A DNA stretch of 43,772 bases from Gemmatimonadota bacterium (GTDB taxonomy: Bacteria; Gemmatimonadota; Gemmatimonadetes; Gemmatimonadales; GWC2-71-9), in assembly GCA_031393795.1 (NCBI GenBank), contig JANMWE010000272.1:1-43772 (forward strand), read 5' to 3'. Positions 8,920-43,561 of this stretch are shown here, piece after piece. A program made the translations under genes and the position numbers. How positions within the stretch are numbered: the stretch's first letter is position 1; each line of letters opens with the position of its first letter. The notes below the pieces were generated by a model. It did not search any database and was not told where the DNA came from. It worked only from the letters and a program-made list of their open reading frames with translations.

Positions 8920-10839
8920 TCAGCCCAGCGCGGTCCACTCCTCCATCGCCCGGTCCAGCTGGGCCTTCCTGGCGCGCAGCTCTCCATCCAGTTTCTTCGC
9001 TTCCTTCGCGCCGTTCGGCTGCTGGTAGAGCGCCGGATCGGCGAGCTTCGCCTCCAGCCCCTTGATCTCCCCTTCCAGCGTGTGCACCCGCTGTTCCGCC
9101 GCCTCCCGCTTCCGGACGGCGTTCCGCTCGTCCGCCTGCTTCGTCCGACGTGCCTCGTCCGGCTTCTGGTCGATCTTCGGCCGCTTCGCTTCCGCCTTCT
9201 TCTCTTCGGCCGCCGTCACCCGGGCCTGCTTCTCCCGCGAGGTCTTGAACGCCTCCCACTCCTCGAACGTCCCCTCGACATCCTCGATCCGCCCCTGGTC
9301 GAGGGACCAGACCCGGGTCACGAGGTTCCGGAGCAAGGCCCGGTCGTGACTCACGAGGATGATGGTCCCATCGTACTCCGCGAGGCTCTCTTCCAGCGAT
9401 TCGATCGACTCGACGTCCAGGTGGTTGGTCGGCTCGTCGAAGATCAGCAGGTTCGCCTCGATCAGCGCCATCATCGCGAGCCCCACGCGCGCCCGCTCGC
9501 CGCCGGAGAGCGACCCGGTCTCCCGCTGCACGGTCTCTCCCGAGAAGCCGAAGACCCCCAGGTGATTCTGCACCGCACCGCGGGTCCACTTGGGGCGGAG
9601 GTCGGCGATGATGTCGAAGATGGTCTTGTCCGACGGGACCTGACCGAGGTCCTGCTGGTAGTAGCCCACCATCGTGCCGTCGCCGATCTTCACCGTCCCC
9701 CCTTCGGCCGGACGCTCCCCCAGCAGCGTCTTGAGCAGCGTCGACTTCCCCGCCCCGTTCGATCCGACGAACCCGATCACATCGCCCCGCTTGATCCGAC
9801 TGGTGAAGCGGTCGAGCAGGACCCGGTCGCCGATCGCCACCTTCACGTTCTCGGCCACCAGCACCTGGTCGCCACCGCGGCTCCCCGCATTCAGGGTGAA
9901 GGCGCTCACCCCCGCCTCTCCCCTCGGGGCCGAAAGGCGCGGAATGTTGTCGAGCCGGCGCTTGCGGCCGCGGGCGTTGGTCGCGTTGAACCCGGCGGCG
10001 TTCCGCCGGATGTAGTCCTCTTCCCGGGCGATGGCCGAGGACTGCTTCTCGAAGGCGCGGGTCGCCGCCAGCCGCCGCTCGACCCGGACCTGCACGAAGG
10101 TGCTGTACTTGCCGGGGTAGGGCGTGGCCGAGCCGCTTTCGACGTGCAGAATGTGGTCGACCACCCGCTCGAGGAAGTCGCGATCGTGGGTCACGACGAT
10201 CACGGTCTCGGAGAGCCCCTTGAGGTATCCCTCGAGCCAGGTGGTGGTCTCGAGGTCGAGGTGGTTGGTCGGCTCATCGAGCAGGAGCATGTCGCACGGT
10301 TCGACCAGCTGACGCACCAGGCCGAGGCGCCCCCGCTCGCCGCCGCTGAGGACGTGGACCGGGGTGACCTTGGCGATCGTGGGGTCGAACCCGAGTCCTT
10401 GGAGCACCGCATCCACGCGGGCGTGCGCCTGGTAGCCCCCTTCGTGCTCGAAGCGCTCGAGGTCGTCGGCGTAGCGCTGCAGGATCTCCGGGGTACAGGC
10501 GTCGCCGAGCTCGGCCAGCCGGTGCCCCTGGGCCTCGATATCCCGCTCGAGTTGAAAGAGCTCGGCGTACGCCAGCGCGGCCGCGTCCCAGACGCTCCGG
10601 GCCCCGGCGAAGTCGCGGTGCTGGTCGAGCAGGGCGATGCGGAGCCCCGCCTGACGGGAGACCGACCCGACCGTCGGCTTCAGGTCACCGGTGATGAGGT
10701 TGAAGATCGTGGTCTTCCCGCTGCCATTGCGCCCGACGACCCCCCACTTCTCCCCCGCCTCGACGGTGAAGGTCACGTCCTTGAGCAGGTCGGTGGAGCC
10801 ATAGCTCACCCCGACCCCGCCGATCGACAGCTGTGCCAC
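8920..10839 (-). CDS. ABC-F family ATPase (two ABC domains plus C-terminal coiled coil; Uup/YheS-like)
   Basis: Two Walker A motifs (GRNGSGKTT, GSNGAGKST), two LSGGE signatures and two Walker B motifs (LLLDEPTNHLD, LIFDEPTNHLD), plus a Lys/Glu-rich coiled-coil tail. Start set at GTG 10839 (GAAGGGG SD 5 nt upstream). TTG at 10887 is the alternative. Confidence 0.9.
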   Translation of the reverse strand: MAQLSIGGVGVSYGSTDLLKDVTFTVEAGEKWGVVGRNGSGKTTIFNLITGDLKPTVGSVSRQAGLRIALLDQHRDFAGARSVWDAAALAYAELFQLERDIEAQGHRLAELGDACTPEILQRYADDLERFEHEGGYQAHARVDAVLQGLGFDPTIAKVTPVHVLSGGERGRLGLVRQLVEPCDMLLLDEPTNHLDLETTTWLEGYLKGLSETVIVVTHDRDFLERVVDHILHVESGSATPYPGKYSTFVQVRVERRLAATRAFEKQSSAIAREEDYIRRNAAGFNATNARGRKRRLDNIPRLSAPRGEAGVSAFTLNAGSRGGDQVLVAENVKVAIGDRVLLDRFTSRIKRGDVIGFVGSNGAGKSTLLKTLLGERPAEGGTVKIGDGTMVGYYQQDLGQVPSDKTIFDIIADLRPKWTRGAVQNHLGVFGFSGETVQRETGSLSGGERARVGLAMMALIEANLLIFDEPTNHLDVESIESLEESLAEYDGTIILVSHDRALLRNLVTRVWSLDQGRIEDVEGTFEEWEAFKTSREKQARVTAAEEKKAEAKRPKIDQKPDEARRTKQADERNAVRKREAAEQRVHTLEGEIKGLEAKLADPALYQQPNGAKEAKKLDGELRARKAQLDRAMEEWTALG

Positions 10840-14353: not shown

Positions 14354-14423
14354 GGCTGGGCGTTGGGTGCTGGGTGCTGGGTGCTGGGTGCTGGGTGCTG
14401 GGTGCTGGATGCTGGGTGCTGGG
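14354..14423. repeat. TR2: about 10 tandem copies of the heptamer TGCTGGG (no inverted partner found)
   Basis: The units run GGCTGGG CGTTGGG TGCTGGG x5 TGCTGGA TGCTGGG x2. The array sits between the divergent rhodanese (start 14338) and PAP2 (start 14485) genes. The G3-N4 periodicity gives a textbook G-quadruplex motif on the + strand. Confidence 0.9.
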
Positions 14424-15513: not shown

Positions 15514-15587
<74 letters not shown>

Positions 15588-15944: not shown

Positions 15945-15964
15945 CGTCGCACCCTCCATGGTGG

Positions 15965-17812
15965 TCAAGCGCTCTCCGCGCGTGCCGCCGCCCGGGCGGC
16001 CTTCTTGCGGTCCGTGGCCTGCAGCATCCGCTTGCGCAGCCGGATGACCGCCGGAGTGATCTCGATCAACTCGTCCTCCTCGATGTACTCCAGCGCGTAC
16101 TCCAGCGTGATCTGGCGCGGCGGCTCCAGGATCACGTTGTCATCCGACGCGGTGGTCCGCATGTTGGTGAGCTTCTTCTCCTTGGTGACGTTCACGTCCA
16201 TGTCCCCCGGACGCGAGTTCTCCCCCGCCACCAATCCTTCGTACACTTCGTCGCCCGGCTTGACGAACATCTGGGCCCGCTCCTGCAGTCCGCCCAGGGC
16301 GAACGCCACCACCTGCCCCTCGCGGTCGGCCACGAGCACCCCGCGCTTCCGCCCCGCGAGCGGTCCGGCCCATCCGCCGTACTCCAGGAACCGGTGGTGC
16401 ATGATCCCGGTGCCCCGGGTATCGGTCAGGAACTCCGACCGGTAACCGAAGAGCCCGCGCGCCGGGATCCGGAACGACAGCCGCACGGTCCCGTGCCCCG
16501 CATTCCTCATCTCCATCATCTCGGCGCGGCGCGGCCCCATCTTCTCCATCACGACGCCCATGAACTCTTCGGGCACGTCGATCATCAGCTCCTCGTACGG
16601 CTCCAGCCGCTCACCGTTGGGGCCTTCCTTGGTGATGACCCGCGGCCGCGACACCTGGAACTCGAACCCCTCGCGCCGCATCGTCTCCATCAGGATGCCG
16701 AGGTGCAGCTCCCCCCGGCCGCTCACGGTGTGGGTGTCGGGGCTGTCGGTCTCCTGGACCTTGAGCGCCACGTTCCGCTCCAGCTCCCGGAAGAGCCGGT
16801 CCCGCACCTGGCGGCTGGTGACGAACTTGCCGTCCTGGCCCGCGAAGGGCGAGTTGTTCACCACGAAGTCCACCGAGATGGTCGGCTCCTCGACCGCGAT
16901 GCCGGCCATCCGCTCCGGAAAGTCGATCGCCGTGAGCGTCTTGCCGATCTCGATCCCGTCGAACCCCGCCATCACAACGATGTCCCCCGCCGAGGCTTCC
17001 TGCACCTCGATCTTGGTCAGGCCATCGAAGGTCATCAGCTTGGTGATGCGGCTCCGGGTCACCTCACCCTCGGCCACCATCCCCGGCTCGCCCAGCGGCA
17101 GCAGCCCGACGGCATCGCCGACCTTGACCGTCCCCCGCTCGATCCGCCCGATCCCCATCCGCCCCACGAAGTTCGAGAAGTCGAGGGTCGAGATGAGCAT
17201 CTGGAACGGCCCGTTCGCGTCGCTCTTCGGCGGCGGGACGTAGTCCAGGATCGTCTGGAACAGCGGCGCCAGGTCGGGCCCCGGCTGGTCCAGCTCCATC
17301 GTGGCGGTCCCGTGACGGCTGGACGTATAGAGGAACGGTGCGTCGAGCTGCTCGGGCGTGGCGTCGAGATCGATGAACAGCCCCAGGACCTCATCGTGCA
17401 CCCGGAGCGGTTCGGCGTCGGACCGGTCGATCTTGTTGATCGCGACGATCGGCCGGAGCCCCAGAGCCAGCGCCTTCCGGGTCACGAACCGCGTCTGCGG
17501 CATCGGCCCTTCGGCGGCGTCCACCAGGATCAGTACCCCGTCGACCATCCGGAGGATCCGCTCCACCTCACCACCGAAGTCGGCGTGCCCGGGAGTGTCG
17601 ACGATGTTGATCTTGACCCCGTGCCAGGTCACGGCGGTGTTCTTGGCCAGGATGGTGATCCCCCGCTCCTTCTCGAGCGGGTTGGAATCCATGACGCGCT
17701 CGTCGACATGCTGGTTGGCCCGGAACGCCCCCGCCTGCCGGAGCATCTGGTCCACCAATGTGGTCTTGCCGTGGTCGACGTGCGCGATGATCGCGATGTT
17801 CCTGATTTCCAC
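15965..17812 (-). CDS. typA: Translational GTPase TypA/BipA
   Basis: 615 aa with a GTG start. Contains IRNIAIIAHVDHGKTTLVD, DTPGHADFGGEVER and NKID, with full-length BipA architecture. Confidence 0.95.
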   Translation of the reverse strand: MEIRNIAIIAHVDHGKTTLVDQMLRQAGAFRANQHVDERVMDSNPLEKERGITILAKNTAVTWHGVKINIVDTPGHADFGGEVERILRMVDGVLILVDAAEGPMPQTRFVTRKALALGLRPIVAINKIDRSDAEPLRVHDEVLGLFIDLDATPEQLDAPFLYTSSRHGTATMELDQPGPDLAPLFQTILDYVPPPKSDANGPFQMLISTLDFSNFVGRMGIGRIERGTVKVGDAVGLLPLGEPGMVAEGEVTRSRITKLMTFDGLTKIEVQEASAGDIVVMAGFDGIEIGKTLTAIDFPERMAGIAVEEPTISVDFVVNNSPFAGQDGKFVTSRQVRDRLFRELERNVALKVQETDSPDTHTVSGRGELHLGILMETMRREGFEFQVSRPRVITKEGPNGERLEPYEELMIDVPEEFMGVVMEKMGPRRAEMMEMRNAGHGTVRLSFRIPARGLFGYRSEFLTDTRGTGIMHHRFLEYGGWAGPLAGRKRGVLVADREGQVVAFALGGLQERAQMFVKPGDEVYEGLVAGENSRPGDMDVNVTKEKKLTNMRTTASDDNVILEPPRQITLEYALEYIEEDELIEITPAVIRLRKRMLQATDRKKAARAAARAESA

Positions 17813-19310: not shown

Positions 19311-20642
19311 ATGGAACCCTCAAGCACGGCCACTACGGGCTCGGTCGGACTCGGACTCCTCTCTGTCGTAGTGCTCGTGGTGGCGAACGCCTTCTTCGTC
19401 GCCGCCGAGTTCGCACTGGTCGGGTCCCGGCGGTCGCGGCTGGAGGAGCTGATCCAGCAGGGCGAACGCAAAGCTATCCTCGCGCGCCGGGCGGTTCAAT
19501 CGCTCGGCCGCTACATCTCTGCCACCCAGCTCGGGATCACCCTGACCTCGCTCGGCCTCGGCTGGAAGGGGGAGCCGGCCCTGGCCAGGGTGGTGAGCGG
19601 GGCGTTCGACTATCTCCCCGAGCTGGTGCGTCCCTGGGCGACACATTTCACGGCCGGGCTGCTCGCGTTCTCGGCGATCTCCCTCCTTCATATCATCCTC
19701 GGCGAGCTCGTCCCCAAGGCGGTCGCGATCATCTATCCCGAGACCGTCGCGATCTGGGCCATCTATCCCCTCACGGGGTTCGTCTGGGTGATGACGGTCC
19801 CCGTGATGTTCCTGAACCGGACCTCGAACGCACTGCTCAACGTGCTCGGCATCAATCCTCCGGGCGAGAGCGAGCGGCTCCACTCTCCCGACGAACTCCG
19901 GATGCTGGTGGGGCAGAGCCAGGAAGGGGGCTCGCTGGACGAGCAGGACGCGCGGCTGCTGGAGGGGGTGTTCGAGTTCGGCGAGAAGACCGCGCAGGAC
20001 GTGATGACGCCGCGCACCCGGATGATCGCGCTCGAGGCCGACTCGAGCGTCCAGCGCGCGGCGGCGGTGATCGCGACCGCGGGGCGGTCACGCTATCCCG
20101 TGTATGCCGACACCCTCGACGACATCGTCGGGGTGGTGCACGCAAAGGCCATCCTCGTGGCCCTGCGCGAGGACCCCACCCGCCTCCTGAAGGATGCGGT
20201 CCGTCCGCCGCTGTTCGTGCCGGGCACGCGCAAGATCGAGGACGTGCTCGCCGACATGAAGCGGCAGCGGACCCACCTCGCGGTGGTCCTCGACGAGTAT
20301 GGCGGCACCGCCGGCCTGGTGACCATGGAGGATCTCCTCGAGGAGATCGTCGGGGACATCGAGGACGAATACGACCGCGCCGACCGCCCCGCGCCCCAGC
20401 CGGATGGTGCGGCCATCCTCGACGGCGGGCTCCCGCTCACCGACCTTCCCGACAAGGCGGGGATCGAGATCGAGGACGAGAACTACACCACCCTCGGCGG
20501 CTACCTCTTCGGGCGGCTCGGACGGCTTCCCAAGCCGGGCGATCAGGTCCTGGTGGCCGACCGGACCTTCGAGATCACCGAGATGGACGGGCGGCGGGTG
20601 AAGAGCGTGCGGTTGCTCCCCCCTGGAGCGAAACACAAGTAA
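19311..20642 (+). CDS. CNNM/CorC-family membrane protein (DUF21 + CBS pair + CorC_HlyC domain)
   Basis: 443 aa. The DUF21 N-terminus has FFVAAEFALV and ATQLGIT. A CBS pair region and a C-terminal transporter-associated domain follow. Confidence 0.9.
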   Translation: MEPSSTATTGSVGLGLLSVVVLVVANAFFVAAEFALVGSRRSRLEELIQQGERKAILARRAVQSLGRYISATQLGITLTSLGLGWKGEPALARVVSGAFDYLPELVRPWATHFTAGLLAFSAISLLHIILGELVPKAVAIIYPETVAIWAIYPLTGFVWVMTVPVMFLNRTSNALLNVLGINPPGESERLHSPDELRMLVGQSQEGGSLDEQDARLLEGVFEFGEKTAQDVMTPRTRMIALEADSSVQRAAAVIATAGRSRYPVYADTLDDIVGVVHAKAILVALREDPTRLLKDAVRPPLFVPGTRKIEDVLADMKRQRTHLAVVLDEYGGTAGLVTMEDLLEEIVGDIEDEYDRADRPAPQPDGAAILDGGLPLTDLPDKAGIEIEDENYTTLGGYLFGRLGRLPKPGDQVLVADRTFEITEMDGRRVKSVRLLPPGAKHK

Positions 20643-20752
20643 CGAGGGGTGAGTGCAAGGGGCGAGTTGGCACGGAAGCGATGAGCGCGAAAGGGATGGA
20701 CCCATTCGCGCTTGTCGCTTTCCACCCGCTCGCGACTTGCACTCGCACCTCG
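20643..20752. repeat. PAL-A1: 110-bp imperfect palindrome filling the convergent corC/pdxA gap; homologous to PAL-A2
   Basis: The left arm CGAGGGGTGAGTGCAAGGGGCGAGTTGGCACGGAAGCGATGAGCGCGAA pairs with the reverse complement of the right arm, CGAGGTGCGAGTGCAAGTCGCGAGCGGGTGGAAAGCGACAAGCGCGAA. The apex is ATGGACCCAT. It abuts both stop codons. Confidence 0.7.
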
Positions 20753-21661
20753 CTACTGCTTCCGCGCCAGCGCGACCGCCAACTCGAGTGCTTTTCGCAT
20801 GCTGCGCGCGCTGGCGACACCCGTCCCCGCGATATCGAACGCCGTCCCGTGATCGGGGCTCGTCCGCACGAACGGGAGCCCGAGCGTCACGTTCACCGCC
20901 TCACCGAAGCTCGCCACCTTGATGGCGGTCATCCCGATGTCGTGATAGGGGGCGAGCACCACGTCGAATTCTCCGGCCATCGCGCGCACGAACACGGTGT
21001 CGGCGGGCAGCGGGCCCGCCGCGCCGAGCAGGGCCGCCGCGGGGCGGAGGATCCGCGCCTCCTCGTCGCCGAAGAGCCCGCCCTCGCCCGCGTGCGGATT
21101 GAGGGCGCAGAGCGCGAGGCGCGGCGCGGCGATGCCGAACCGGTCGCGGAGCGCCGCCGCGGTGATCTTCCCGGTCCGGACGATCTTGTCGGTCGTGAGC
21201 AGGATCGGTACATCGCGGAGCGGCACGTGGGTGGTGACCAGCACCACCCGGAGCCGGTCGGACGCGAGCATCATGACGGTCTCGGCGCCGCCGGCTAGGG
21301 CGCCGAGCCATTCGGTGTGGCCCGGGTAGGTAAAGCCGGCGAGGTGACAGGCCCGCTTCTCGATGGGGGCGGTGACCACTCCGTCCACTGCGCCCTCCCG
21401 CGCGAGCCGGGCCGCCGCCTCGATCGCGTGGCCGGCGAGCTTCCCCGCCTTCATCGTGCGGGCGCGGTCCTCCGGACGCTCCCCGACCCCGCCCTCCCAA
21501 CGACCGACGCCGACCTTCCGGGTGACCGGGAGGTCGGCGATCAGGTCTTCGGGGCCCACGACGGTGATCTCCGCGTCGAGCGGCGCGGCCAAGGCCGCGC
21601 GGACGATCTCTGGGCCGATGCCGCGCGGGTCGCCAAGCGTCACCGCGAGGCGCGGCGTCAC
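20753..21661 (-). CDS. pdxA: 4-hydroxythreonine-4-phosphate dehydrogenase
   Basis: GTG at 21661 overlaps the surA-like stop (GTGA). Begins LAVTLGDPRGIGPEI. Also has HTEWL, NPHAGE and GLPFVRTSPDHGTAFDIAG. The track start at 21844 is an over-extension. Confidence 0.9.
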   Translation of the reverse strand: MTPRLAVTLGDPRGIGPEIVRAALAAPLDAEITVVGPEDLIADLPVTRKVGVGRWEGGVGERPEDRARTMKAGKLAGHAIEAAARLAREGAVDGVVTAPIEKRACHLAGFTYPGHTEWLGALAGGAETVMMLASDRLRVVLVTTHVPLRDVPILLTTDKIVRTGKITAAALRDRFGIAAPRLALCALNPHAGEGGLFGDEEARILRPAAALLGAAGPLPADTVFVRAMAGEFDVVLAPYHDIGMTAIKVASFGEAVNVTLGLPFVRTSPDHGTAFDIAGTGVASARSMRKALELAVALARKQ

Positions 21662-30644: not shown

Positions 30645-30846
30645 GAGGAGTTGAGAGCTAAGAGCCGAGAGCCAGGAGCCGAGAGCCGAGAGCCAAGAGC
30701 CAAGAGCGAAGAGCGAAGAGCGAAGAGCTAAGAGCTTGGGGTTCGCGTAGTTACGAGTGTACACCCCACTGGACAGCGGATGGCGACGGCATCCGCTGGT
30801 AAGGCTAAATCCTTTGGCTCTAAGCTCTTAGCTCTTGGCTCTCAAC
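30645..30846. repeat. HP4: 12-13 tandem NRRGAGC heptads (30645-30735) plus a distal inverted arm of about 4.5 units (30815-30845)
   Basis: The units run TGAGAGC TAAGAGC CGAGAGC CAGGAGC CGAGAGC x2 CAAGAGC x2 GAAGAGC x3 TAAGAGC. The partner arm is GGCTCTAAGCTCTTAGCTCTTGGCTCTC. The ~75-nt spacer holds its own 9-bp hairpin (CAGCGGATG...CATCCGCTG, about 30773-30797). Confidence 0.9.
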
Positions 30847-30905: not shown

Positions 30906-32273
30906 ATGTTCGTCACCCTCGGCTTGATCGCCAGCCTCGGTCTTGGGCTTCCCCCCCGGCCGGTGGACCATCTCCGCCTCTACAGCGACTTGGGCTCTTC
31001 GGGCGGACGTATCTCGATCTGGCTTGATCGGAGCAATCCCTATGCACGCGGGGATCGCGCCCGGGTCTACGTCTCGGCCGACCGCGATTCCTATCTCACC
31101 GTGCTCCGCATCGACACCGACGGCCGGGTACGGGTGCTCTTTCCGCAGGACCCCTGGGACGACAACTATGTGACGGGCGGGCGCACCTTCGAGGTCGAGG
31201 ACCGCGGTGGTGACCGGGCCTTCCGCGTGGATGACGCGCCCGGCGCCGGGTACGTCTTCGCGATCGTGTCGGACGTGAAGTTCGACTACAGCTCGATCCT
31301 GACCCAGCGCGACAACTGGGACTACCGCACCATCGCGGACGGGCAGGTCCGCGGCGACCCGTACGTTGCGGTCACCGACCTGGCGCAGCGCATCGTACCG
31401 ACCGGGGAGTTCGACTATGACCTGGCGCAGTACGACGTGCAGCAGCACTATGACTACCCGCGCTTCGTCTGCTACGATTGTCATGCCTACGCACCCTACT
31501 ACACCTGGAACCCCTACGCGCATTCGTGCGTGCGGTTCCGCGTGGTGATCTACGACGATCCGTACTATTACCCCTACCGCTACTACGGTGGTCGCGGGGT
31601 GGTGGTGGTCCGGCCTCGCCGGCCGCAGCCCCGCTACGTCTTCGTCGACAACAGCGGTGGCAACGACTACGTGACCCGCATCCCCACCCGCCCACGCCGT
31701 GAGGACCAGGGTGGCACCACTGGCGGCGGCACGGGTGGCGGCACCGGTGGCGACCAGATGCGTCCGCGCCGCGGGGAGGATGTCGGGGGCCGTGGCACCA
31801 TCCCGATCCCGGGAGACACCCGACGTCGGATCATAGGCCAGCCCGAGCAGCGGGCCACCGATCCAGGTCAGCAGCCGCCGGAACGTCGGCGGATCGAGCG
31901 GCAGGGCGACAAGCCCGCGATCGGTGAGCCAGGGCGCCGAGACCGCCCGGAGACCCAGCCCAATCCGCCCGGGCTCGAGCCCCAACCGCAGATGAAGCCA
32001 GACCGGCCTCGCCGCGAAGAGCCGTCACGGCAGGACCCGCAGTCTCGACCGGAGCCCCAGCGTCCCCCCGAGCAGCGGCGGGAGGAGCCGAGGCGCCAGG
32101 AGCCGGAATCACGGCCGGAACCGCAGCGCCCGCCGGAACCGCGTGCGGAGCCGCGGGCCGAGCCCCGTGCCGAGCCCCGTGCCGAGCCGAGGCACGAGGA
32201 ACCGCGGCGGCAACCGCCGAGCGGTGGGGGGGGAAGGTCGGGGAGCCCGGAGCTGCGCAGGCGGAGGGGTTGA
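30906..32273 (+). CDS. DUF4384-domain protein with a Tyr-rich middle region and a long Pro/Arg/Glu-rich disordered tail
   Basis: SD GGAGGA lies 5 nt upstream. The DUF4384-like core is RVYVSADRDSYLTVLRIDTDGRVRVLFPQ. The tail has repeats SRPEPQRPPE x2 and (AEPR)4, the latter encoded by 12-bp tandem units at 32145-32192. Confidence 0.75.
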   Translation: MFVTLGLIASLGLGLPPRPVDHLRLYSDLGSSGGRISIWLDRSNPYARGDRARVYVSADRDSYLTVLRIDTDGRVRVLFPQDPWDDNYVTGGRTFEVEDRGGDRAFRVDDAPGAGYVFAIVSDVKFDYSSILTQRDNWDYRTIADGQVRGDPYVAVTDLAQRIVPTGEFDYDLAQYDVQQHYDYPRFVCYDCHAYAPYYTWNPYAHSCVRFRVVIYDDPYYYPYRYYGGRGVVVVRPRRPQPRYVFVDNSGGNDYVTRIPTRPRREDQGGTTGGGTGGGTGGDQMRPRRGEDVGGRGTIPIPGDTRRRIIGQPEQRATDPGQQPPERRRIERQGDKPAIGEPGRRDRPETQPNPPGLEPQPQMKPDRPRREEPSRQDPQSRPEPQRPPEQRREEPRRQEPESRPEPQRPPEPRAEPRAEPRAEPRAEPRHEEPRRQPPSGGGGRSGSPELRRRRG

Positions 32274-32344
32274 GACAAGAGGAGACGGGAGGAGACGGGA
32301 GTGGTCCCCGCCTCCTCTCGTCTCTTTTCGTCTCCTCTCGTCTC
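32272..32344 (+). repeat. HP5: heptad-built hairpin (GGAGACG units) directly after the DUF4384 gene stop
   Basis: The left arm is GAGACAAGAGGAGACGGGAGGAGACGGGAG and the right arm is CCTCCTCTCGTCTCTTTTCGTCTCCTCTCGTCTC. Of the arm mismatches, 4 become G-U and 1 is A-C on the + strand RNA. Confidence 0.7.
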
Positions 32345-32454
32345 ATCCTGTTTCGGCTGCTGAAACATCGTACCGGGGCCCCCCGTACCGTTCACCGGTC
32401 GGGGGGTGTTTACTTGCATCCCCTTCGCTCGTTCACCTAGCCGGGAGTTCTCGC

Positions 32455-35602: not shown

Positions 35603-35608
35603 ACGAAT

Positions 35609-35714
35609 GTGCGAAGTCCGAAGTCCGAAGTGCGAGGTGCGGGGTTATTGTTGGGGAGTTTCTCCCACACCCCGGACTTCGCACCTCGCACCTCGCACCT
35701 CGCACCTCGCACCC
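35609..35714 (+). repeat. HP6: heptad-built hairpin (GTSCGAR units) between the M28 and CMD genes; same family as HP10
   Basis: The left arm is GTGCGAA GTCCGAA GTCCGAA GTGCGAG GTGCGGG. The right arm is CCCCGGAC TTCGCAC CTCGCAC x4. The loop holds a small GGGGAG/CTCCC hairpin. Confidence 0.75.
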
Positions 35715-35723
35715 TGAAGGACC

Positions 35724-36077
35724 ATGACCCAGACCATCGACGAATGGAACGCCTTCCGCGCGAAGATGAACGACCGGATCTTCGCCGCCGGGAACCTGCC
35801 GATCAATCGCTTTTTCCGGCTCGACGGCCAGGCGTACGAGGCCGGGGCGCTCGGCGAGAAGACCAAGGAACTGATGGGACTCGTCGCATCGCTGGTGCTG
35901 CGGTGTGACGACTGCGTGACCTATCACATCCTCGAGGCCATCAAGCAGGAGGCGACCGACGAGGAGCTGCTCGAGACCTTCGCCATCGGGCTGATCGTCG
36001 GGGGGAGCATCGTGATCCCGCATCTCCGGCGGGCGATGGAGCGGGTGGACGAGGCGCGGGGGCGGGCTGGCGTGTAG
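35724..36077 (+). CDS. Carboxymuconolactone decarboxylase (AhpD-like) family protein
   Basis: 117 aa. AhpD-like helical fold signature with CxxC (LRCDDCVTYH). SD GAAGGA is present. Confidence 0.8.
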   Translation: MTQTIDEWNAFRAKMNDRIFAAGNLPINRFFRLDGQAYEAGALGEKTKELMGLVASLVLRCDDCVTYHILEAIKQEATDEELLETFAIGLIVGGSIVIPHLRRAMERVDEARGRAGV

Positions 36078-36078
36078 C

Positions 36079-36196
36079 TGCAGGGGCGCAGGGGCGCGCA
36101 GGCGCACTGGCGGCTGGGTCGGAGCGAAGACGGGACCGTCCCGAGTGACGCGAGGGACGGTCCCCCGCTGTTCCTGCGCCCACGCGCCTCTGCGCC
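36079..36196 (+). repeat. HP7: nested hairpin built from 8-nt units (GCAGGGGC / NNTGCGCC) around an inner GGGACCGTCCC/GGGACGGTCCC stem
   Basis: The outer arms are TGCAGGGGCGCAGGGGCGCGCAGGCGCA (36079-36106) and TGCGCCCACGCGCCTCTGCGCC (36175-36196). The inner stem is 36132-36142 / 36154-36164. Confidence 0.6.
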
Positions 36197-36217: not shown

Positions 36218-38020
36218 ATGCGTCAGTCCCGTATCCGTAATTTCTGCATCGTTGCGCACATCGACCACGGCAAGTCCACGCTCGCCGACCGGCTCATCGA
36301 GATGACCGGCACGGTCGAGAAGCGCATCATGCGCGAGCAGATGCTCGACACGATGGACCTCGAGCGCGAGCGCGGGATCACCATCAAGCTCAATGCTGTC
36401 CGCATGCTCTACAAGGCGCTGGACGGCCACCAGTATGAGCTGAACCTGATCGACACCCCCGGCCACGTCGACTTCACCTACGAAGTGAGCCGCTCCCTTG
36501 CCGCGTGCGAAGGGGCGATCCTGGTGGTCGACGCCACCCAGGGGATCCAGGCCCAGACGCTCTCGAACCTCTTCCTGGCGATGGACGCGGGGCTCGAGAT
36601 CATCCCGGTGCTCAACAAGATCGACCTCCCCGGCGCCGAGCCGGAGAAGCGGGCCCTGGAGATCATCGACCTGATCGGCTCCACCCGCGCCGAGATCCTG
36701 TCGGTGAGCGCCAAGGAGGGGACCGGCGTCCCCGCGCTGCTCGAGGAGATCGTCAAGCGCGTCCCCACCCCGCGCGGCAGCCACGACGCGCCGCTCCGCG
36801 CCCTCATCTTCGACTCCTATTTCGACCGGTACCGGGGGGCGATCCCGAGCATTCGGGTGGTCGACGGTGTGCTCAAGCCGAAGATGAAGATCGCCTTCGG
36901 GGCCCACCCGGAGGACATCTACACCGTCGAGGAGGTCGGCTACCTCTCGATGGGGCAGAAACCCGCGACGAAGCTCGAGGCGGGCGAAGTGGGCTATGTC
37001 GTGGCCAACTGCCGGGGCGTGGGCGACACCCGGGCGGGCGATACGATCTTCGACGCCGACCACCGTGCCACGGAACTGCTGCCGGGCTACCGGAACGTCA
37101 TGCCCATGGTGTTCGCGGGGCTCTATCCCACGGACGCGGCCCAGTACGAACAGCTCCGGGATGCCCTGGAGAAACTCAAGCTCAATGACGCATCGCTCCA
37201 ATACGAGGCCGAGACCTCGACCGCCCTCGGCTTCGGCTTCCGGGCGGGGTTCCTTGGGCTGCTGCATATGGAGATCATCGTCGAGAGGCTGGAACGGGAG
37301 TTCGACCTCGACCTGATCGCGACGGTCCCGACGGTGGAGTACCATGTCTTCACCACCGCCGGAACGATGGAAAAGGTGGAGAACCCGTCACACCTCCCGG
37401 ACCCGGGCCACATCGAGCGGATCGACGAACCCTACGTCAAGAGCCGGATCATGGCGCCCGCGGAGTACATCGGGCCGATCATGAAGCTCGGCGGCGACCG
37501 CCGCGGCATCTACAACGGCATGAAGTACCTCGACACCGTACGGGTGGAGTTCGACTGGGAGTTCCCGCTGGGCGAGATCGTGCTCGACTTCTACGACAAG
37601 CTCAAGTCGGCCACGCGCGGCTATGCGTCGTTCGACTATGAGCATGCCGGGTATCGCACCAGCGACCTGGTGAAGCTCGACATGCTGATCAACAACGAGG
37701 CGCTCGACGCCTTCAGCGTGATCATCCACAAGGACAAGGCGTACGAGTACGGCCGGAAGGTGGCCGAGAAGTTGAAGGAGCTGATCCCGCGCCAGCTCTT
37801 CGTGGTGGCGATCCAGGCCGCCATCGGCCAGAAGGTCATCGCCCGCGAGACGATCAGCGCGCTCCGGAAGGACGTGCTCGCCAAGTGTTACGGCGGCGAC
37901 GTGAGCCGGAAGCGGAAGCTCCTGGAGAAGCAGAAGGAAGGAAAGAAGCGGATGAAGCAGATCGGGAGCGTGGAGATCCCGCAGGAGGCGTTCCTGGCGG
38001 TGCTGCAGGTGGACGACTGA
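36218..38020 (+). CDS. lepA: Elongation factor 4 (LepA)
   Basis: 600 aa. Contains [28 protein letters not shown] and NKIDLP, plus the LepA-specific C-terminal domain ([34 protein letters not shown]). Confidence 0.97.
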
Positions 38021-38028
38021 AAGCGAAC

Positions 38029-38099
38029 AGGCGCTCGAGGCGCTCAAGGCGCTCGGGTGCTGCGACACTACTTGAGCGTCTTGAGCGTCTGGAGCGCCT
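38029..38099 (+). repeat. HP8: hairpin built from 9-nt units (AGGCGCTCR x3 / CTTGAGCGT-type x3) between lepA and the heptosyltransferase gene
   Basis: 29-nt arms give 24 Watson-Crick pairs, 4 G-U pairs and 1 mismatch on the + strand RNA. The 4 G-U positions would be C-A on the - strand RNA. The right arm contains the GGAG 5 nt upstream of the TTG start at 38100. Confidence 0.75.
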
Positions 38100-39110
38100 T
38101 TGAACTCCACACTCGTGATCCAGACCGCCTTCCTCGGCGACGTGGTCCTCACGATCCCGTTGCTGCAGGCCCTGGCCGAACGCCACGGCCCGGTGGACGT
38201 CGTCACCACTCCGGCGGCAGCGAGCCTGATCGAGACCCACCCCGCGGTGCGGCGGGTGGTGCAGTGGGATAAGAACGGAACGAACGGGCCTGGGGCCTGG
38301 GGCCTGGGGAGGCAGCTCAGGTCTCAGGGGTACACCCGCGTATACCTGCCTCACCGATCGTTCCGGTCGGCGCTGATCGCCAGGCTCACCGGCGCGCCGG
38401 AGCGGGTCGGCTTCGCCGACGCCCCCCTCCCCGCCCGCTTCCTCTATACCCGCACCCACCCGCGCCGAACCGACCAGCACGAGAGTGTCCGGCTCCTGGC
38501 CCTCCTCGGCGATACGGTGGCGGGCGGCGATTGGCGGATGGTCACCACGCCCGAGGACGACGCGAAGGCCACGAGCTGGCTCCGCGAGCGGGGTGTGGCC
38601 GACGGCTTCGTGGCCCTCGCGCCAGGGTCGATCTGGGGCACGAAGAAGTGGCCATACTACTCGGAGCTCTCGGCCCGGCTCGGTCGTCAGGTCGTGGTGA
38701 TCGGCGGGAAGGAAGACGCGACCCTCGGCGATGCGATCGTGGCCGCGGCCCCGGACCAGGCGAAGAGCGCGGTGGGTCAACTGACGCTCCGAGAGAGCGC
38801 GGCACTCCTCAAGCACGCCGCGCTCCTCGTGACCAACGACTCGGCCCCGCTCCACCTCGCCACTGCCGTGGGGACGCCGATCCTGGCGATCTTCGGGCCG
38901 ACGGTCCCGGCGTTCGGTTATGGCCCAATCCGCCCCGGTGATCGGGTGGCCGAGATCGTGCTCGATTGCCGCCCCTGCTCTTCCCACGGTCCACAGGTCT
39001 GTCCGCTCGGTCATCATCGGTGCATGAAGGCCCAGTCGGCCGATGACGTGGCGAAGGTCGCGGCCTCGATGCTGGATCGGGATACTCCACGGAGGGACGG
39101 AGGGGACTGA
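38100..39110 (+). CDS. GT9-family ADP-heptose:LPS heptosyltransferase (WaaF/WaaC-like)
   Basis: 336 aa. The N-terminus is LVIQTAFLGDVVLTIPLL. Also has GSIWGTKKWP and NDSAPLHLATAVGTPILAIFGPT. The TTG start is tentative. Confidence 0.85.
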   Translation: MNSTLVIQTAFLGDVVLTIPLLQALAERHGPVDVVTTPAAASLIETHPAVRRVVQWDKNGTNGPGAWGLGRQLRSQGYTRVYLPHRSFRSALIARLTGAPERVGFADAPLPARFLYTRTHPRRTDQHESVRLLALLGDTVAGGDWRMVTTPEDDAKATSWLRERGVADGFVALAPGSIWGTKKWPYYSELSARLGRQVVVIGGKEDATLGDAIVAAAPDQAKSAVGQLTLRESAALLKHAALLVTNDSAPLHLATAVGTPILAIFGPTVPAFGYGPIRPGDRVAEIVLDCRPCSSHGPQVCPLGHHRCMKAQSADDVAKVAASMLDRDTPRRDGGD

Positions 39111-39168
39111 GGTACGGAGAAAGCCGTTATGTTTGTTCGGTCACTCAGTTCCCTCCGTCCCTCAGTGG
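39087..39168 (+). repeat. HP9: hairpin (GGAGGGAC-type units) overlapping the 3' end of the heptosyltransferase gene
   Basis: The 20-bp stem pairs GAGGGACGGAGGGGACTGAG (39092-39111) with CTCAGTTCCCTCCGTCCCTC (39144-39163). The single mismatch is a G-U pair on the + strand RNA. An outer CCAC/GTGG extension is present. Confidence 0.75.
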
Positions 39169-39213
39169 CGATCCCCGATCTCCCCGCACGCGCGACCTGA
39201 CGAGGCCATTGCG

Positions 39214-40197
39214 TTGAACCACATCGTTGGCATCGACCTGGGCGGGACCAACATCGCCGTGGGCTGCGTCTCGGAGGACGGGACCAAGGTCCGCGGCCTG
39301 GTGAGCGAGCCCACGCGCTCCGACCTGGGCCCCGACGGCGTGGTGCAGCGGATGGTGCAGACGGCGGAACGGTCGATGCAGATGCTGCAGGCCGAGGAGA
39401 AGGGCGCCCAGGTGGTCGGCGTCGGCATCGGCGCGCCCGGCCCGCTCGATTTCCATCGCGGTGTCGTCCTGCTCGCGCCGAACCTGGGGTGGACGGACAT
39501 GCCGCTCCGCGACCGGATCTCCGCGGGGCTCAAGCGGCCTGCCGCGCTCGACAACGACGCCAACTGCGCCGCCCTCGGCGAATGGTGGCAGGGCGCCGCG
39601 AAGGGGACCTCGCACGCGCTCGCCGTCACCATCGGGACGGGGATCGGTGGCGGAGTGATCCTCAACGGCAAGATCTACCACGGCGCCTCCGACTGCGCGG
39701 GCGAGCTGGGACACACCACCATCGACATGGATGGTCGGCGCTGCGCCTGCGGCAACTACGGCTGCCTCGAGGCGTACGCGTCGGGGCCCGCCATCGCCCT
39801 CCGGGCCGCGGAGGCGCTGAGCTCGGGGTATGAGTCATCACTCCGCACCCGGGTGAAGGGCGATCTCTCGAAGATCACCGCGCAGACCGTGTACGACGCG
39901 GCGGCCGAGGGGGACGAGCTCGCGCTCGAGGTCGTGCGCGACACTGCGAGCTACCTCGGCGCCGGGATCGCGAACTTCCTGAACATCTTCAATCCCGAGG
40001 TCGTGGTCGTCTGCGGTGGGGTGACCGCCGCGGGCGAGCGGCTCTTCGGCCCGATGCAGCGCGAGGTGGCGCGGCGGGCGTTCAAGCCGGCGGTGGCGGC
40101 ATGCCGGATCGTGCCGGGGATGTTGCCGGGCACCGCCGGTGTGATCGGGGCGGCGCGGACCTACCTCGACCAGAAGGCGGAGGGGCTCGTTGCCTAA
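39214..40197 (+). CDS. glk: ROK-family glucokinase
   Basis: The N-terminus is GIDLGGTNIAVG. The ROK zinc motif CACGNYGCLEAYASG is present. The TTG start at 39214 is tentative. The track start at 39043 overlaps the previous gene and is rejected. Confidence 0.85.
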   Translation: MNHIVGIDLGGTNIAVGCVSEDGTKVRGLVSEPTRSDLGPDGVVQRMVQTAERSMQMLQAEEKGAQVVGVGIGAPGPLDFHRGVVLLAPNLGWTDMPLRDRISAGLKRPAALDNDANCAALGEWWQGAAKGTSHALAVTIGTGIGGGVILNGKIYHGASDCAGELGHTTIDMDGRRCACGNYGCLEAYASGPAIALRAAEALSSGYESSLRTRVKGDLSKITAQTVYDAAAEGDELALEVVRDTASYLGAGIANFLNIFNPEVVVVCGGVTAAGERLFGPMQREVARRAFKPAVAACRIVPGMLPGTAGVIGAARTYLDQKAEGLVA

Positions 40198-41191
40198 GAT
40201 CGGCGTCCTCGGCGCCCTCGTGTGGGACGTGATCCACGGCCGCGACCCGGCGCAGGGGGTCGTGGAGGAGTGGGGCGGGATCGCCTACTCGCTCGCGGCG
40301 ATGGACGCGGCGCTGCCCGAGGATTGGGAGATCGTCCCCCTCATCAAGGTGGGACACGACCGGGCGCGGCAGGCGGCGGAGTTCGCGTGCACGCTCGATC
40401 ACTTCCCGGCCCACGCCCGCTTCATCGAAGTGCCGGTGGCCAACAACATGGTGGAGCTCCGCTACCAGTCGGCCGAGCGGCGCTGCGAGCGGATGGCGGG
40501 GGGGGTGCCAGGGTGGAACTGGGCCGAGCTCGGGCCGATGGTGCAGGACCTCGACGCGCTGTACGTGAACTTCATCAGCGGGTTCGAGATGTGCCGCTGG
40601 ACCGCGAAGAACCTGCGCCAGGGGTTCCACGGCCCGATCTATGCCGACCTCCATTCCCTCTTCCTCGGGATGCGGGGCGACGGCGTGCGCACGCTGCAGC
40701 CCCTCGCTGACATCGGCGAGTGGTTCTCCTGCTTCGATACGGTGCAGCTCAACGAAGAAGAGATGCGGACCCTGGGCGATGACCCGATGGCGCTCTCGGC
40801 CGAGATGTTGCGCGCCGGGGTCACCCTGCTCAACGTCACGCTCGGTGCCAAGGGGGTGGCCTACATCCACGCTCCCGGCAATGAGGTCCGAAGTCCGAGG
40901 TCCAAGGTCCGAGGTGCAGAGACGCAGGCACCCGGGCGACCCGCACTTCGCACTTCGGACTTCGGACATTCCACGATCCGAAGCGCACGCATCGCCCCGC
41001 CTCCCGTCGAGGCCACCGACACCACCGGCTGCGGCGACGTCTTCGGCGCCACTTGTGCGGCGCGGCTCGCGGCCGGGGACAGCGTGGAGGAGGCGCTCCA
41101 ACGCGCCAACCAGGCCGCGGCGCGGAGTGCGACCCATCGCGGGGCCACCAGCCTGGCCGCGTATCTCAAAGGTGGATTGGTGACGGCGTGA
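40190..41191 (+). CDS. PfkB-family carbohydrate kinase carrying an in-frame repeat-derived insertion
   Basis: The TTG at 40190 is preceded by GGCGGAGGGG and overlaps the glk stop. The PfkB signature DTTGCGDVFGA lies near the C-terminus. About 35 residues (NEVRSPRSKVRGAETQAPGRPALRTSDFGHSTIRSA) between TLGAKGVAYIHAPG and RIAPPPVEATDTTG are encoded by HP10. Confidence 0.8.
   Translation: MPKIGVLGALVWDVIHGRDPAQGVVEEWGGIAYSLAAMDAALPEDWEIVPLIKVGHDRARQAAEFACTLDHFPAHARFIEVPVANNMVELRYQSAERRCERMAGGVPGWNWAELGPMVQDLDALYVNFISGFEMCRWTAKNLRQGFHGPIYADLHSLFLGMRGDGVRTLQPLADIGEWFSCFDTVQLNEEEMRTLGDDPMALSAEMLRAGVTLLNVTLGAKGVAYIHAPGNEVRSPRSKVRGAETQAPGRPALRTSDFGHSTIRSARIAPPPVEATDTTGCGDVFGATCAARLAAGDSVEEALQRANQAAARSATHRGATSLAAYLKGGLVTA
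40883..40967. repeat. HP10: heptad-built hairpin (GAGGTCC/GAAGTCC units and complement) inside the PfkB CDS
   Basis: The left arm is GAGGTCC GAAGTCC GAGGTCC AAGGTCC GAGGTGC. The right arm is GCACTTC GCACTTC GGACTTC GGAC. The reverse complement of 40939-40967 matches 35616-35644 of HP6 at 27 of 29 positions. Confidence 0.8.
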
Positions 41192-43346: not shown

Positions 43347-43360
43347 TCTCTGCGGCAGGA

Positions 43361-43491
43361 CCAATAGGGCGGGGCGCCTCGCCCCGCCATTGGAATAGAA
43401 AGCGATTTATAGGGCGGGGCCCCCGGCCCCGCCATCACCCGGTGCAAGCATCCGGGCAATGGCGGCGCGAGGGCGCGCCGCCCTATTGGCC
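43361..43491. repeat. Cluster of three REP-like GC palindromes (two in one orientation, the third inverted)
   Basis: CCAATAGGGCGGGGCGCCTCGCCCCGCCATTGG (43361-43393); TATAGGGCGGGGCCCCCGGCCCCGCCATC (about 43409-43437); CAATGGCGGCGCGAGGGCGCGCCGCCCTATTGG (about 43457-43489). Confidence 0.65.
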
Positions 43492-43561
43492 CGTTGTTGA
43501 GATTCCGCCGCTCCGCGGGAACTCTCCCCTGGCCTCCCACCCTACCCGACCTAGATTGAGA

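Follow-up and report, generated by a model that had tools for sequence, protein, structure and literature searches.

In-frame palindromic inserts have been known in bacterial genes since the discovery of the Rickettsia palindromic elements (RPEs), and they are usually read as selfish DNA landing in tolerant loops. Here we report on an in-frame insert of heptad repeats, foldable into a hairpin, in a PfkB-family kinase gene of a bacterium of the order Gemmatimonadales (phylum Gemmatimonadota; contig JANMWE010000272.1, of which the whole 43,772-nucleotide stretch was analysed and is called the window hereafter). The insert is probably a tolerated coding member of a class of hairpins that otherwise dwells in intergenic spacers. 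As summarised in PMC10969869 after Ogata et al. (2000), RPEs are sequence families of ~100-150 bp that encode a conserved peptide and occur in dozens of unrelated genes. The Gemmatimonadales elements resemble RPEs in that (i) short hairpin-capable repeats occur in frame within housekeeping genes as well as in intergenic DNA, and (ii) a peptide is added at a permissive surface position without inactivation of the protein (PMC10969869). The closest anatomy is that of the cyanobacterial STRR sequences, heptamer tandem repeats forming intergenic hairpins, for instance between hupS and hupL: both are inverted arrays of 7-bp units in spacers of co-directional genes near the 3' end of the upstream gene (PMC2670836). 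For STRR, roles in stabilising transcripts and in coupling translation have been suggested (PMC2670836). REP/BIME sequences and MITEs (transposable elements of miniature size with inverted repeats), including REP, ERIC, BOX, Correia and Nezha, are also comparable, being small dispersed palindromes or inverted repeats that are intercistronic and occasionally intragenic, can be nested, and show presence/absence polymorphism between strains. A REP is an imperfect palindrome of 20-40 bp whose head, GTAG or CGTC, is conserved (PMC3733652).

The features of the PfkB gene, its insert and the closest intergenic relative of the insert are as follows (pi, nucleotide diversity).

40190..41191, plus strand: PfkB-family (ribokinase-fold) kinase gene, 333 codons, TTG start, uninterrupted open reading frame (ORF).
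40856..40870, plus strand: codons of the beta-strand directly before the insert (DSSP strand E223-227 in the AlphaFold2 model).
40886..40972, plus strand: in-frame insert of 87 nt, residues 233-261 (VRSPRSKVRGAETQAPGRPALRTSDFGHS), missing from 304-residue alleles.
40886..40913, plus strand: arm 1, four heptads (GTCCGAA, GTCCGAG, GTCCAAG, GTCCGAG); pi 0.124 and 68% of sites invariant in seven orthologous copies.
40914..40939, plus strand: centre, the hairpin apex, 26 nt without repeats (GTGCAGAGACGCAGGCACCCGGGCGA); pi 0.444.
40940..40967, plus strand: arm 2, four heptads (CCCGCAC, TTCGCAC, TTCGGAC, TTCGGAC) complementary to arm 1; pi 0.184.
40979..40993, plus strand: codons of the beta-strand directly after the insert (strand E264-268 in the AlphaFold2 model).
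41018..41038, plus strand: PfkB signature DTTGCGD (DTxGxGD, with the catalytic Asp), residues 277-283, intact.
35604..35713, plus strand: intergenic sister element (HP6) with units GTSCGAA / CTCGCAC, filling the spacer from the stop codon of a peptidase M28 gene (35602) to the start of a CMD-domain gene (35724).

The original prediction had placed a heptad hairpin at 40880-40987 within the PfkB reading frame, with neither a stop codon nor a frameshift, and this is what we found. Its length, however, had been put at about 35 residues and is 29 when measured against insert-free alleles. In the window, 24 of the 28 positions of arm 1 pair with arm 2, Tandem Repeats Finder (TRF) detected period-7 arrays at 40883-40915 and 40942-40967, and an inverted-repeat search recovered 26-nt arms that are 81% complementary. 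The RNA fold of a 93-nt stretch reached -46.3 kcal/mol, compared with -30.7 +/- 3.3 kcal/mol for dinucleotide shuffles (z = -4.74, none of 200 as good), and folding as DNA gave z = -4.08; the GC content is 69%. Since a period of 7 is not a multiple of 3, the insert is a repeat of DNA, not of peptide. It had been concluded from the insert that some reading frames through the elements are stop-free. This is true of the units, but tandem copies of GTCCGAA, GTGCGAA, TTCGGAC and TTCGCAC are free of stops in all three frames, and the missing stop codons are therefore uninformative.

The 13-mer GTCCGAAGTCCGA, with two mismatches at most, occurs nine times in the window, always within the PfkB insert or the element at 35604-35713, against a mean of 2.7 in shuffled sequences (0 of 100 reached nine). 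The inverted match at 27 of 29 positions reported between these two elements proved exact, and a direct match at 25 of 29 exists as well. Only their arms are alike, the centres being unrelated. The earlier claim that one repeat family exists both between genes and inside a gene is thus borne out by the GTSCGAA unit, present in the 35604-35713 spacer and in the PfkB insert.

We compared seven orthologous copies of the insert, the host genes of which are separated by dS of 0.36-0.56. In these copies pi was 0.359 at four-fold sites of the PfkB gene, 0.444 in the centre of the insert and 0.154 in the arms, where 62% of sites were invariant (bootstrap P < 1e-5 for conservation of the arms). Within the arms, pi was 0.172 at third codon positions and 0.145 at first or second positions. 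As this conservation is independent of codon position, the comparison of orthologues indicates that the arms are kept by a force acting on the nucleic acid and not on the peptide; the centre drifts neutrally. The heptads of arm 1 keep an invariant core GT.CG and those of arm 2 a core CG.AC; their position 3 may be C or G in each arm, with no coordination between the two. The same pattern was seen in a clade with octads (L078, L082, L152, L067 and L146), with pi of 0.647 at four-fold sites, 0.597 in the centre and 0.23-0.29 in the arms.

The host gene itself is most likely functional. It overlaps the ROK gene by 8 nt at its 5' end and the HATPase_c gene by 4 nt at its 3' end, and the gene order ROK-PfkB-HATPase_c is also present in relatives. 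The protein matched Pfam PF00294 at 52.3 bits (cut-off 25.8) over residues 268-321, a match restricted to the C-terminal part, as it is across the whole subfamily, and its homologues are annotated as Gemmatimonadales or Gemmatimonadota PfkB kinases. An AlphaFold2 model (pLDDT 80.5 and pTM 0.84 overall, confident outside the loop) had ribokinase 1vm7 as the top Foldseek match in the PDB (E = 7.8e-16), and matched the ribokinases 1vm7, 1rka and 5byd at E ~1e-15 with TM scores of 0.63-0.70. Among 36 homologues, D277, T279, G280, C281, G282 and D283 of the signature are invariant, as is the N-terminal GG motif W28-G29-G30. Outside the insert, dN/dS among insert-bearing orthologues was 0.1-0.25, indicating purifying selection. 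Because of these dN/dS values and the intact DTTGCGD motif, we regard the PfkB gene as a working gene and not a pseudogene; an inactivated gene would have spoken against the original prediction.

In the model, the insert sits between strands 223-227 and 264-268, with pLDDT below 50 at residues 232-253. It is predicted to form a disordered 29-residue surface loop in place of a beta-hairpin turn, consistent with the surface loop proposed earlier. Within the insert, dN/dS rose to ~0.5-1.2 among the insert-bearing orthologues, and the inserted peptide therefore appears to be essentially unconstrained. A second protein search, for which the loop segments of the seven insert-bearing proteins were aligned as the query, returned 14 short PfkB fragments only, and neither a new filled allele nor another gene. 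The suggestion that the kinase tolerates a new surface loop is supported by the loop, its nearly neutral peptide and the purifying selection on the gene. Nevertheless, the arms are constrained as nucleotides, and tolerance may be an incomplete account.

The presence of the insert is polymorphic. When the closest homologues (74-99% identity) are compared, it is carried by seven lineages with proteins of 331-334 residues, and about 30 close homologues of 304 residues lack the segment and bear APKG[DEG]AVRT at the site. The latter are the uninterrupted alleles for which an alignment of orthologues had been proposed; protein and DNA alignments found them short by exactly 87 nt at the insert point. 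In addition, L174 / P0018 retains arm 2 alone, the L175 / P0027 group has a decayed CCAGCAC array at the site, and the V-R-T codons that follow the site in empty alleles form an 8-bp palindrome, GTGCGCAC. In a neighbour-joining tree of 47 close homologues, reconstructed with the loop excluded, the filled alleles are scattered, each with a well-supported empty sister (bootstrap 87-98).

Filled P0005: empty sister P0039, bootstrap 95.
Filled P0004: empty sister P0028, bootstrap 98.
Filled P0006: empty sister P0020 / P0032, bootstrap 90.
Filled P0018 (partial, arm 2 only): empty sister P0031, bootstrap 87.

Outside the loop, the pairs P0005/P0039 and P0004/P0028 are 97.6% identical, compared with only 81-92% between filled alleles. 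The codons flanking the insert differ by allele class even in these sisters (APGNG...STIRT vs APKDGAVRT), and the remaining differences between sisters cluster near the loop (binomial P of 0.039 and 0.004, for a comparison window picked after seeing the data). Given the differing flanks, neither a simple insertion nor a simple deletion derives one allele class cleanly from the other. Import of an alternative allele fits both the flanks and the clustering, and the likeliest reading is thus that presence and absence of the insert were exchanged between related lineages by homologous recombination. As the insert is common to lineages at dS ~0.5 and its centre has diverged neutrally, the window insert is old and not the product of recent transposition.

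We then asked how the PfkB insert compares with other hairpins. Besides HP6, the window contains the following hairpins with tandem-unit arms, none of them assigned to a strand.

30654..30842: hairpin with AGAGCCA heptads, in the intergenic region of a divergent gene pair.
32268..32354: hairpin of GAGGAGACGG 10-mers, beginning at the upstream stop codon (ORF end 32273).
38029..38100: hairpin of AGGCGCTCG 9-mers, filling the spacer between LepA and glycosyltransferase-9.
39075..39180: hairpin of ACGGAGGG 8-mers between glycosyltransferase-9 and ROK.

Such hairpins fill the spacers of a co-directional gene string, each with a unit of its own. They start no more than 9 nt from the upstream stop codons at 32273, 35602 and 38020, and one overlaps the stop codon at 39110. 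The first arm of the latter, at 39075-39180, encodes the last 12 codons of the glycosyltransferase-9 ORF (end 39110), and the longest ROK ORF (384 residues; 39043-39213 region) reads through the same hairpin, the gene calls of relatives beginning near 39214. Elsewhere in the window, ten tandem GCTGGGT copies at 14355-14423, with no inverted partner array, lie between two minus-strand ORFs and near a tRNA gene (15514-15587, minus strand), and two complex nested hairpins at 20638-20757 and 43358-43492 (-83 and -102 kcal/mol) are not simple tandem-unit arrays. Rfam was searched at the gathering threshold for the window as a whole and with E values up to 1 for 40700-41150; the only hit was the tRNA at 15514-15587. 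Neither intrinsic terminators nor sigma-70 promoters were found at the window hairpins, where counts were at or below those of shuffles and terminator-like T runs were absent.

For a wider census, 176 loci (1.70 Mb around PfkB orthologues, from GTDB genomes and metagenomes) were scanned with a strict detector, which called an element where two TRF arrays of equal period lay within 150 nt and had consensus units that were reverse complements. The census yielded 125 hairpin-of-tandem-repeat elements, of which 65 had period 7 and 51 had period 8, and their units fell into 75 classes of 6-10 nt. About 95 of the 125 were intergenic and 24 lay in the PfkB loop, as judged from crude coding calls based on third-position GC content (GC3) in loci that were all chosen for carrying the PfkB gene, so that comparison from gene to gene is fair for syntenic neighbours only. 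The only plausible coding copy outside PfkB was at L037:1037-1082 (GCGAACA / TTCGCCG), in a coding-like ORF of 2130 nt with GC3 of 0.91-0.96 on both sides. In a catalogue of copies inside coding sequences, of the kind proposed earlier, the class is overwhelmingly intergenic, and its coding copies are concentrated in one PfkB loop instead of being scattered.

This loop behaves as a recurrent slot. From GVAY to TGCGD it spans 24 to 87 residues in 122 distinct orthologues, and loops of at least 43 residues usually show period-7 or period-8 repeats in the DNA together with excess folding. The 24 strict elements in the PfkB loop belong to at least 13 unit classes, and the loop is the sole recurrent coding site in the census. 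In a positional histogram with bins of 500 nt, the bin of the loop collected 20 elements (3.3 per 10 kb), and there were none elsewhere from -1.75 to +2.75 kb, the extent of the spacer-less operon; the next peaks were spacers at +3.0, +4.5 and +5.5 kb. Moreover, a second, sequence-conserved and near-perfect palindrome family of ~70 nt (GAGTCACCCTGAGCG...CGCTCAGGGTGACTC, in a longer form GAGTCACCCTGAGCGGAGCGAAGGGGCC...GGCCCCTTCGCTCCGCTCAGGGTGACTC), encoding GVTLSGA...SLRSAQGDS, is found in frame in the same PfkB loop at ~13 other loci (L032:10721-10786; also L130, L135, L114, L163, L103, L106, L109, L140-L142, L038 and L042), and occurs about ten times outside the PfkB gene (e.g. L052:7185-7250 and L059:15304-15369). 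The loop thus resembles the intergenic slots in accepting palindromic elements in general. In L153 and L155, the second palindrome bears a further nested insert.

Seen against this census, the likeness to RPEs is one of analogy only. The parallel drawn in the original prediction stands in that the insert is palindromic (fold z = -4.7), in frame and at a surface position; full-length homology, a conserved peptide and a spread over many genes were not found. In contrast to RPEs, copies in Gemmatimonadales share the 7-nt unit alone with unrelated centres, their peptide is unconstrained, 24 of ~25 coding copies lie in one PfkB loop, and the phylum is Gemmatimonadota. The likeness to STRR concerns the class, with its largely intergenic elements of period 7 and 8, whereas the PfkB copy itself is intragenic. 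The STRR units of filamentous cyanobacteria (e.g. CCCCAGT), which are a few fixed sequences per genome, differ from the GTSCGAA unit and the 74 other classes of Gemmatimonadales, as do the phylum and the GC content. We know of no report of an STRR hairpin as a conserved in-frame insert in an enzyme. As for REPs and MITEs, no GTAG or CGTC tag was found at either end of 40886-40967 or of 35604-35713, where the arms are 28-nt tandem heptads, and the Gemmatimonadales elements showed no conserved terminal tetranucleotide or family-wide consensus. The PfkB insert has inverted arms, and filled alleles differ from empty ones in their flanks (APGNG..STIRT vs APKGDAVRT). Stems made of tandem units are a feature neither of REPs nor of typical MITE terminal repeats. 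No described Gemmatimonadota hairpin or heptamer repeat was found in the literature searched.

Units recur within single genomes: at 35604 and 40883 in the window, in three copies in L034, and at 10700 and 15257 in L067. Copies usually share their arms alone. In L015, two elements with AACGGTG units 436 nt apart (L015:4657-4739 and L015:5093-5167) are identical even in the centre, a duplication of the whole element, which tells us that elements can be copied. The earlier claim that the elements move or are copied is supported by whole copies and same-unit pairs; the window insert is not a recent transposition. The same GGGGAAGC octad occupies the PfkB loop and an intergenic site ~4.5 kb downstream in L067 (10700/15257), L082 (10697/15245/16523) and L078 (2763/7220). 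As a general rule, such co-variation of unit between the PfkB slot and the spacer ~4.5 kb downstream fails in L025, where the units are different.

Turnover is also seen between near-identical sequences. Over 13 kb, the window shares 99.3% identity with L001/L002, but three hairpin sites differ. The spacer between LepA and glycosyltransferase-9 holds the 9-mer hairpin in the window (38020-38107) and an unrelated 136-nt nested hairpin in L001 (7781-7918). Between the CMD-domain gene (35724-36077) and LepA, the spacer hairpin differs by a 39-nt segment bounded by GGGAC direct repeats (window 36130-36165 vs L001:5855-5925), as if slippage had deleted part of a longer hairpin; the shorter hairpin that is left is still perfect. 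The two diverge again at the 43358 hairpin, the alignment stopping at 43373. Likewise, the orthologous spacer between glycosyltransferase-9 and ROK contains a repeat hairpin in every relative examined, with differing units. Comparisons across the order, of spacers and PfkB loop alike, indicate that the sites persist and the occupants change. In L001, an element at 15965-16047 lies at the very start of what was called as a Peptidase_M23 gene (15958-17199); the gene start has probably been mis-called, though the element could be another partly coding copy.

The explanation that we favour, and hold to be rather probable, is that the PfkB insert is a tolerated in-frame member of the spacer-dwelling hairpin class, maintained by a process at the level of DNA or RNA. 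The class comprises Gemmatimonadales-wide hairpins with arms that are inverted arrays of an element-specific 7-8-nt unit, and its members normally fill short spacers, starting at or a few bases from the upstream stop codon. The ROK-PfkB-HATPase_c operon offers no spacers, and the element lies instead in the PfkB beta-hairpin turn just upstream of DTTGCGD, being translated as a predicted disordered loop that the enzyme tolerates. It may have been copied from a same-unit element, most likely one such as that at 35604-35713, through recombination or template switching at a hairpin-prone site, and a site once occupied may keep attracting or retaining elements. The arms would be maintained by gene conversion among same-unit copies, by arm-to-arm correction or by selection on the stem, and presence or absence would be passed among related lineages by homologous recombination.

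Several observations weigh against this explanation. In orthologous copies the rate of change of the arms is 2-3 times lower than that of neutral sites, too low for a passive passenger, and a functional element fits this rate at least as well. Covariation in the 28-bp stem was not significant across eight orthologues, in which 84% of cells pair, a level also reached by 95 of 500 shuffles, and conservation of the stem is thus not demonstrated as selection for base pairing. No clear target-site duplication, conserved termini or associated transposase was found, a parent insertion sequence not having been sought; only L171 has an approximate direct repeat of 12-14 nt (ACGACGTGCGAC / ACGACCGTGCGCAC), and we infer movement of the elements from their distribution alone. 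Finally, the concentration in one gene is unexplained by tolerance alone.

In the main rival explanation, the hairpin is a selected nucleic-acid element and the protein loop its by-product. In the polycistronic transcript or in the DNA, it could serve as an RNase processing site, as a barrier to 3'-5' decay that sets the stability of individual cistrons, or as a translational pause; the operon genes overlap, and as the operon has no spacers, the element would be confined to a permissive stretch of codons. Such a role would account for arms 2-3 times more conserved than four-fold sites in any codon phase and in two independent clades, and for a loop occupied across the order at 3.3 elements per 10 kb, compared with 2.7-5.3 for intergenic slots. 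It also recalls the proposal that the 7-bp-repeat hairpins of cyanobacteria stabilise transcripts or couple translation (PMC2670836). Nevertheless, many lineages, including the 97.6%-identical sisters, lack any insert under the same operon layout, so that the hairpin is dispensable; significant compensatory change was not seen, mismatches at position 3 of the heptad are tolerated, and there is neither a terminator-like T run nor an Rfam family. On balance we consider this rival rather unlikely.

Alternatively, nothing was inserted, and the array arose in place from the palindrome GTGCGCAC of the V-R-T codons. Replication slippage would have produced the tandem heptads and fold-back template switching the inverted arm, the 35604 element being a secondary copy or a coincidence. 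It is attractive for this idea that GTGCGCAC, which adjoins the site in empty alleles, corresponds to the opening 5 nt of the arm-1 unit GTGCGAA together with the closing 5 nt of the arm-2 unit TTCGCAC, and that the last unit runs into the conserved (P)TVRTAL codons in several octad-bearing orthologues (L126, PTVRPSDRPTVRTAL; L119, LPVRPSSLPVRPSSLPVRTAL). Nearly every element having its own unit (75 classes among 125 elements) and the apparent slippage deletion between GGGAC repeats inside a hairpin, window vs L001, point the same way. However, same-unit elements lie kilobases apart in one genome, whole copies including the centre exist, and other loop units, such as GGCGGGGA, are unrelated to the local codons. 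The sequence-conserved 70-nt palindrome family in the same loop at ~13 other loci is impossible as a home-grown product. A purely local origin is accordingly improbable.

The two remaining accounts fare worse. An ordinary variable loop of low complexity, with repeats and hairpin as by-products of peptide repeats or of GC-rich composition, would agree with the range of loop lengths (24-87 residues in 122 orthologues) and with mid-length loops (33-41 residues) that show neither periodicity nor excess folding. It is very improbable nonetheless, given a period that is not a multiple of 3, a fold well beyond that of dinucleotide shuffles, conservation independent of codon position and the recurrence of the GTSCGAA unit in an intergenic hairpin. 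That the gene is a pseudogene or the insert a chimeric product of assembly is hardly credible at all, as the insert is present in independent assemblies (at least four samples of the same species) and in six further lineages, and the ORF is intact with dN/dS of 0.1-0.25, invariant motifs and a model that is confident outside the loop.

A more far-reaching reading is conceivable, albeit rather unlikely. The hairpins may form an undescribed Gemmatimonadales class of structured elements, built from idiosyncratic 7-8-nt units, that occupies fixed syntenic slots and is kept at the nucleotide level while its sequence turns over; for want of a spacer in the operon, one slot would lie within a coding sequence. 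A gene would thus have hosted a nucleic-acid element in the PfkB beta-turn over timescales of the whole order, the protein loop being a by-product, and filled and empty alleles would represent an ancient dimorphism circulated by recombination.

The findings extend the phenomenon of in-frame palindromic inserts to a poorly studied soil phylum and to hairpins of tandem heptads and octads. One codon-level site has been filled repeatedly, by at least 13 unit types and a second palindrome family, and the inserted DNA is conserved as DNA or RNA, not as peptide, with a presence/absence pattern that behaves like an old dimorphism. The elements also distort gene calls in Gemmatimonadota metagenome-assembled genomes, through N-terminal extensions that run through hairpins and C-termini made from hairpin arms. 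The system thus bears on whether such hairpins are parasites or play an RNA role in operons, on the choice of targets by palindromic elements, for which existing hairpins are candidates, and on the recruitment of loops into enzymes.

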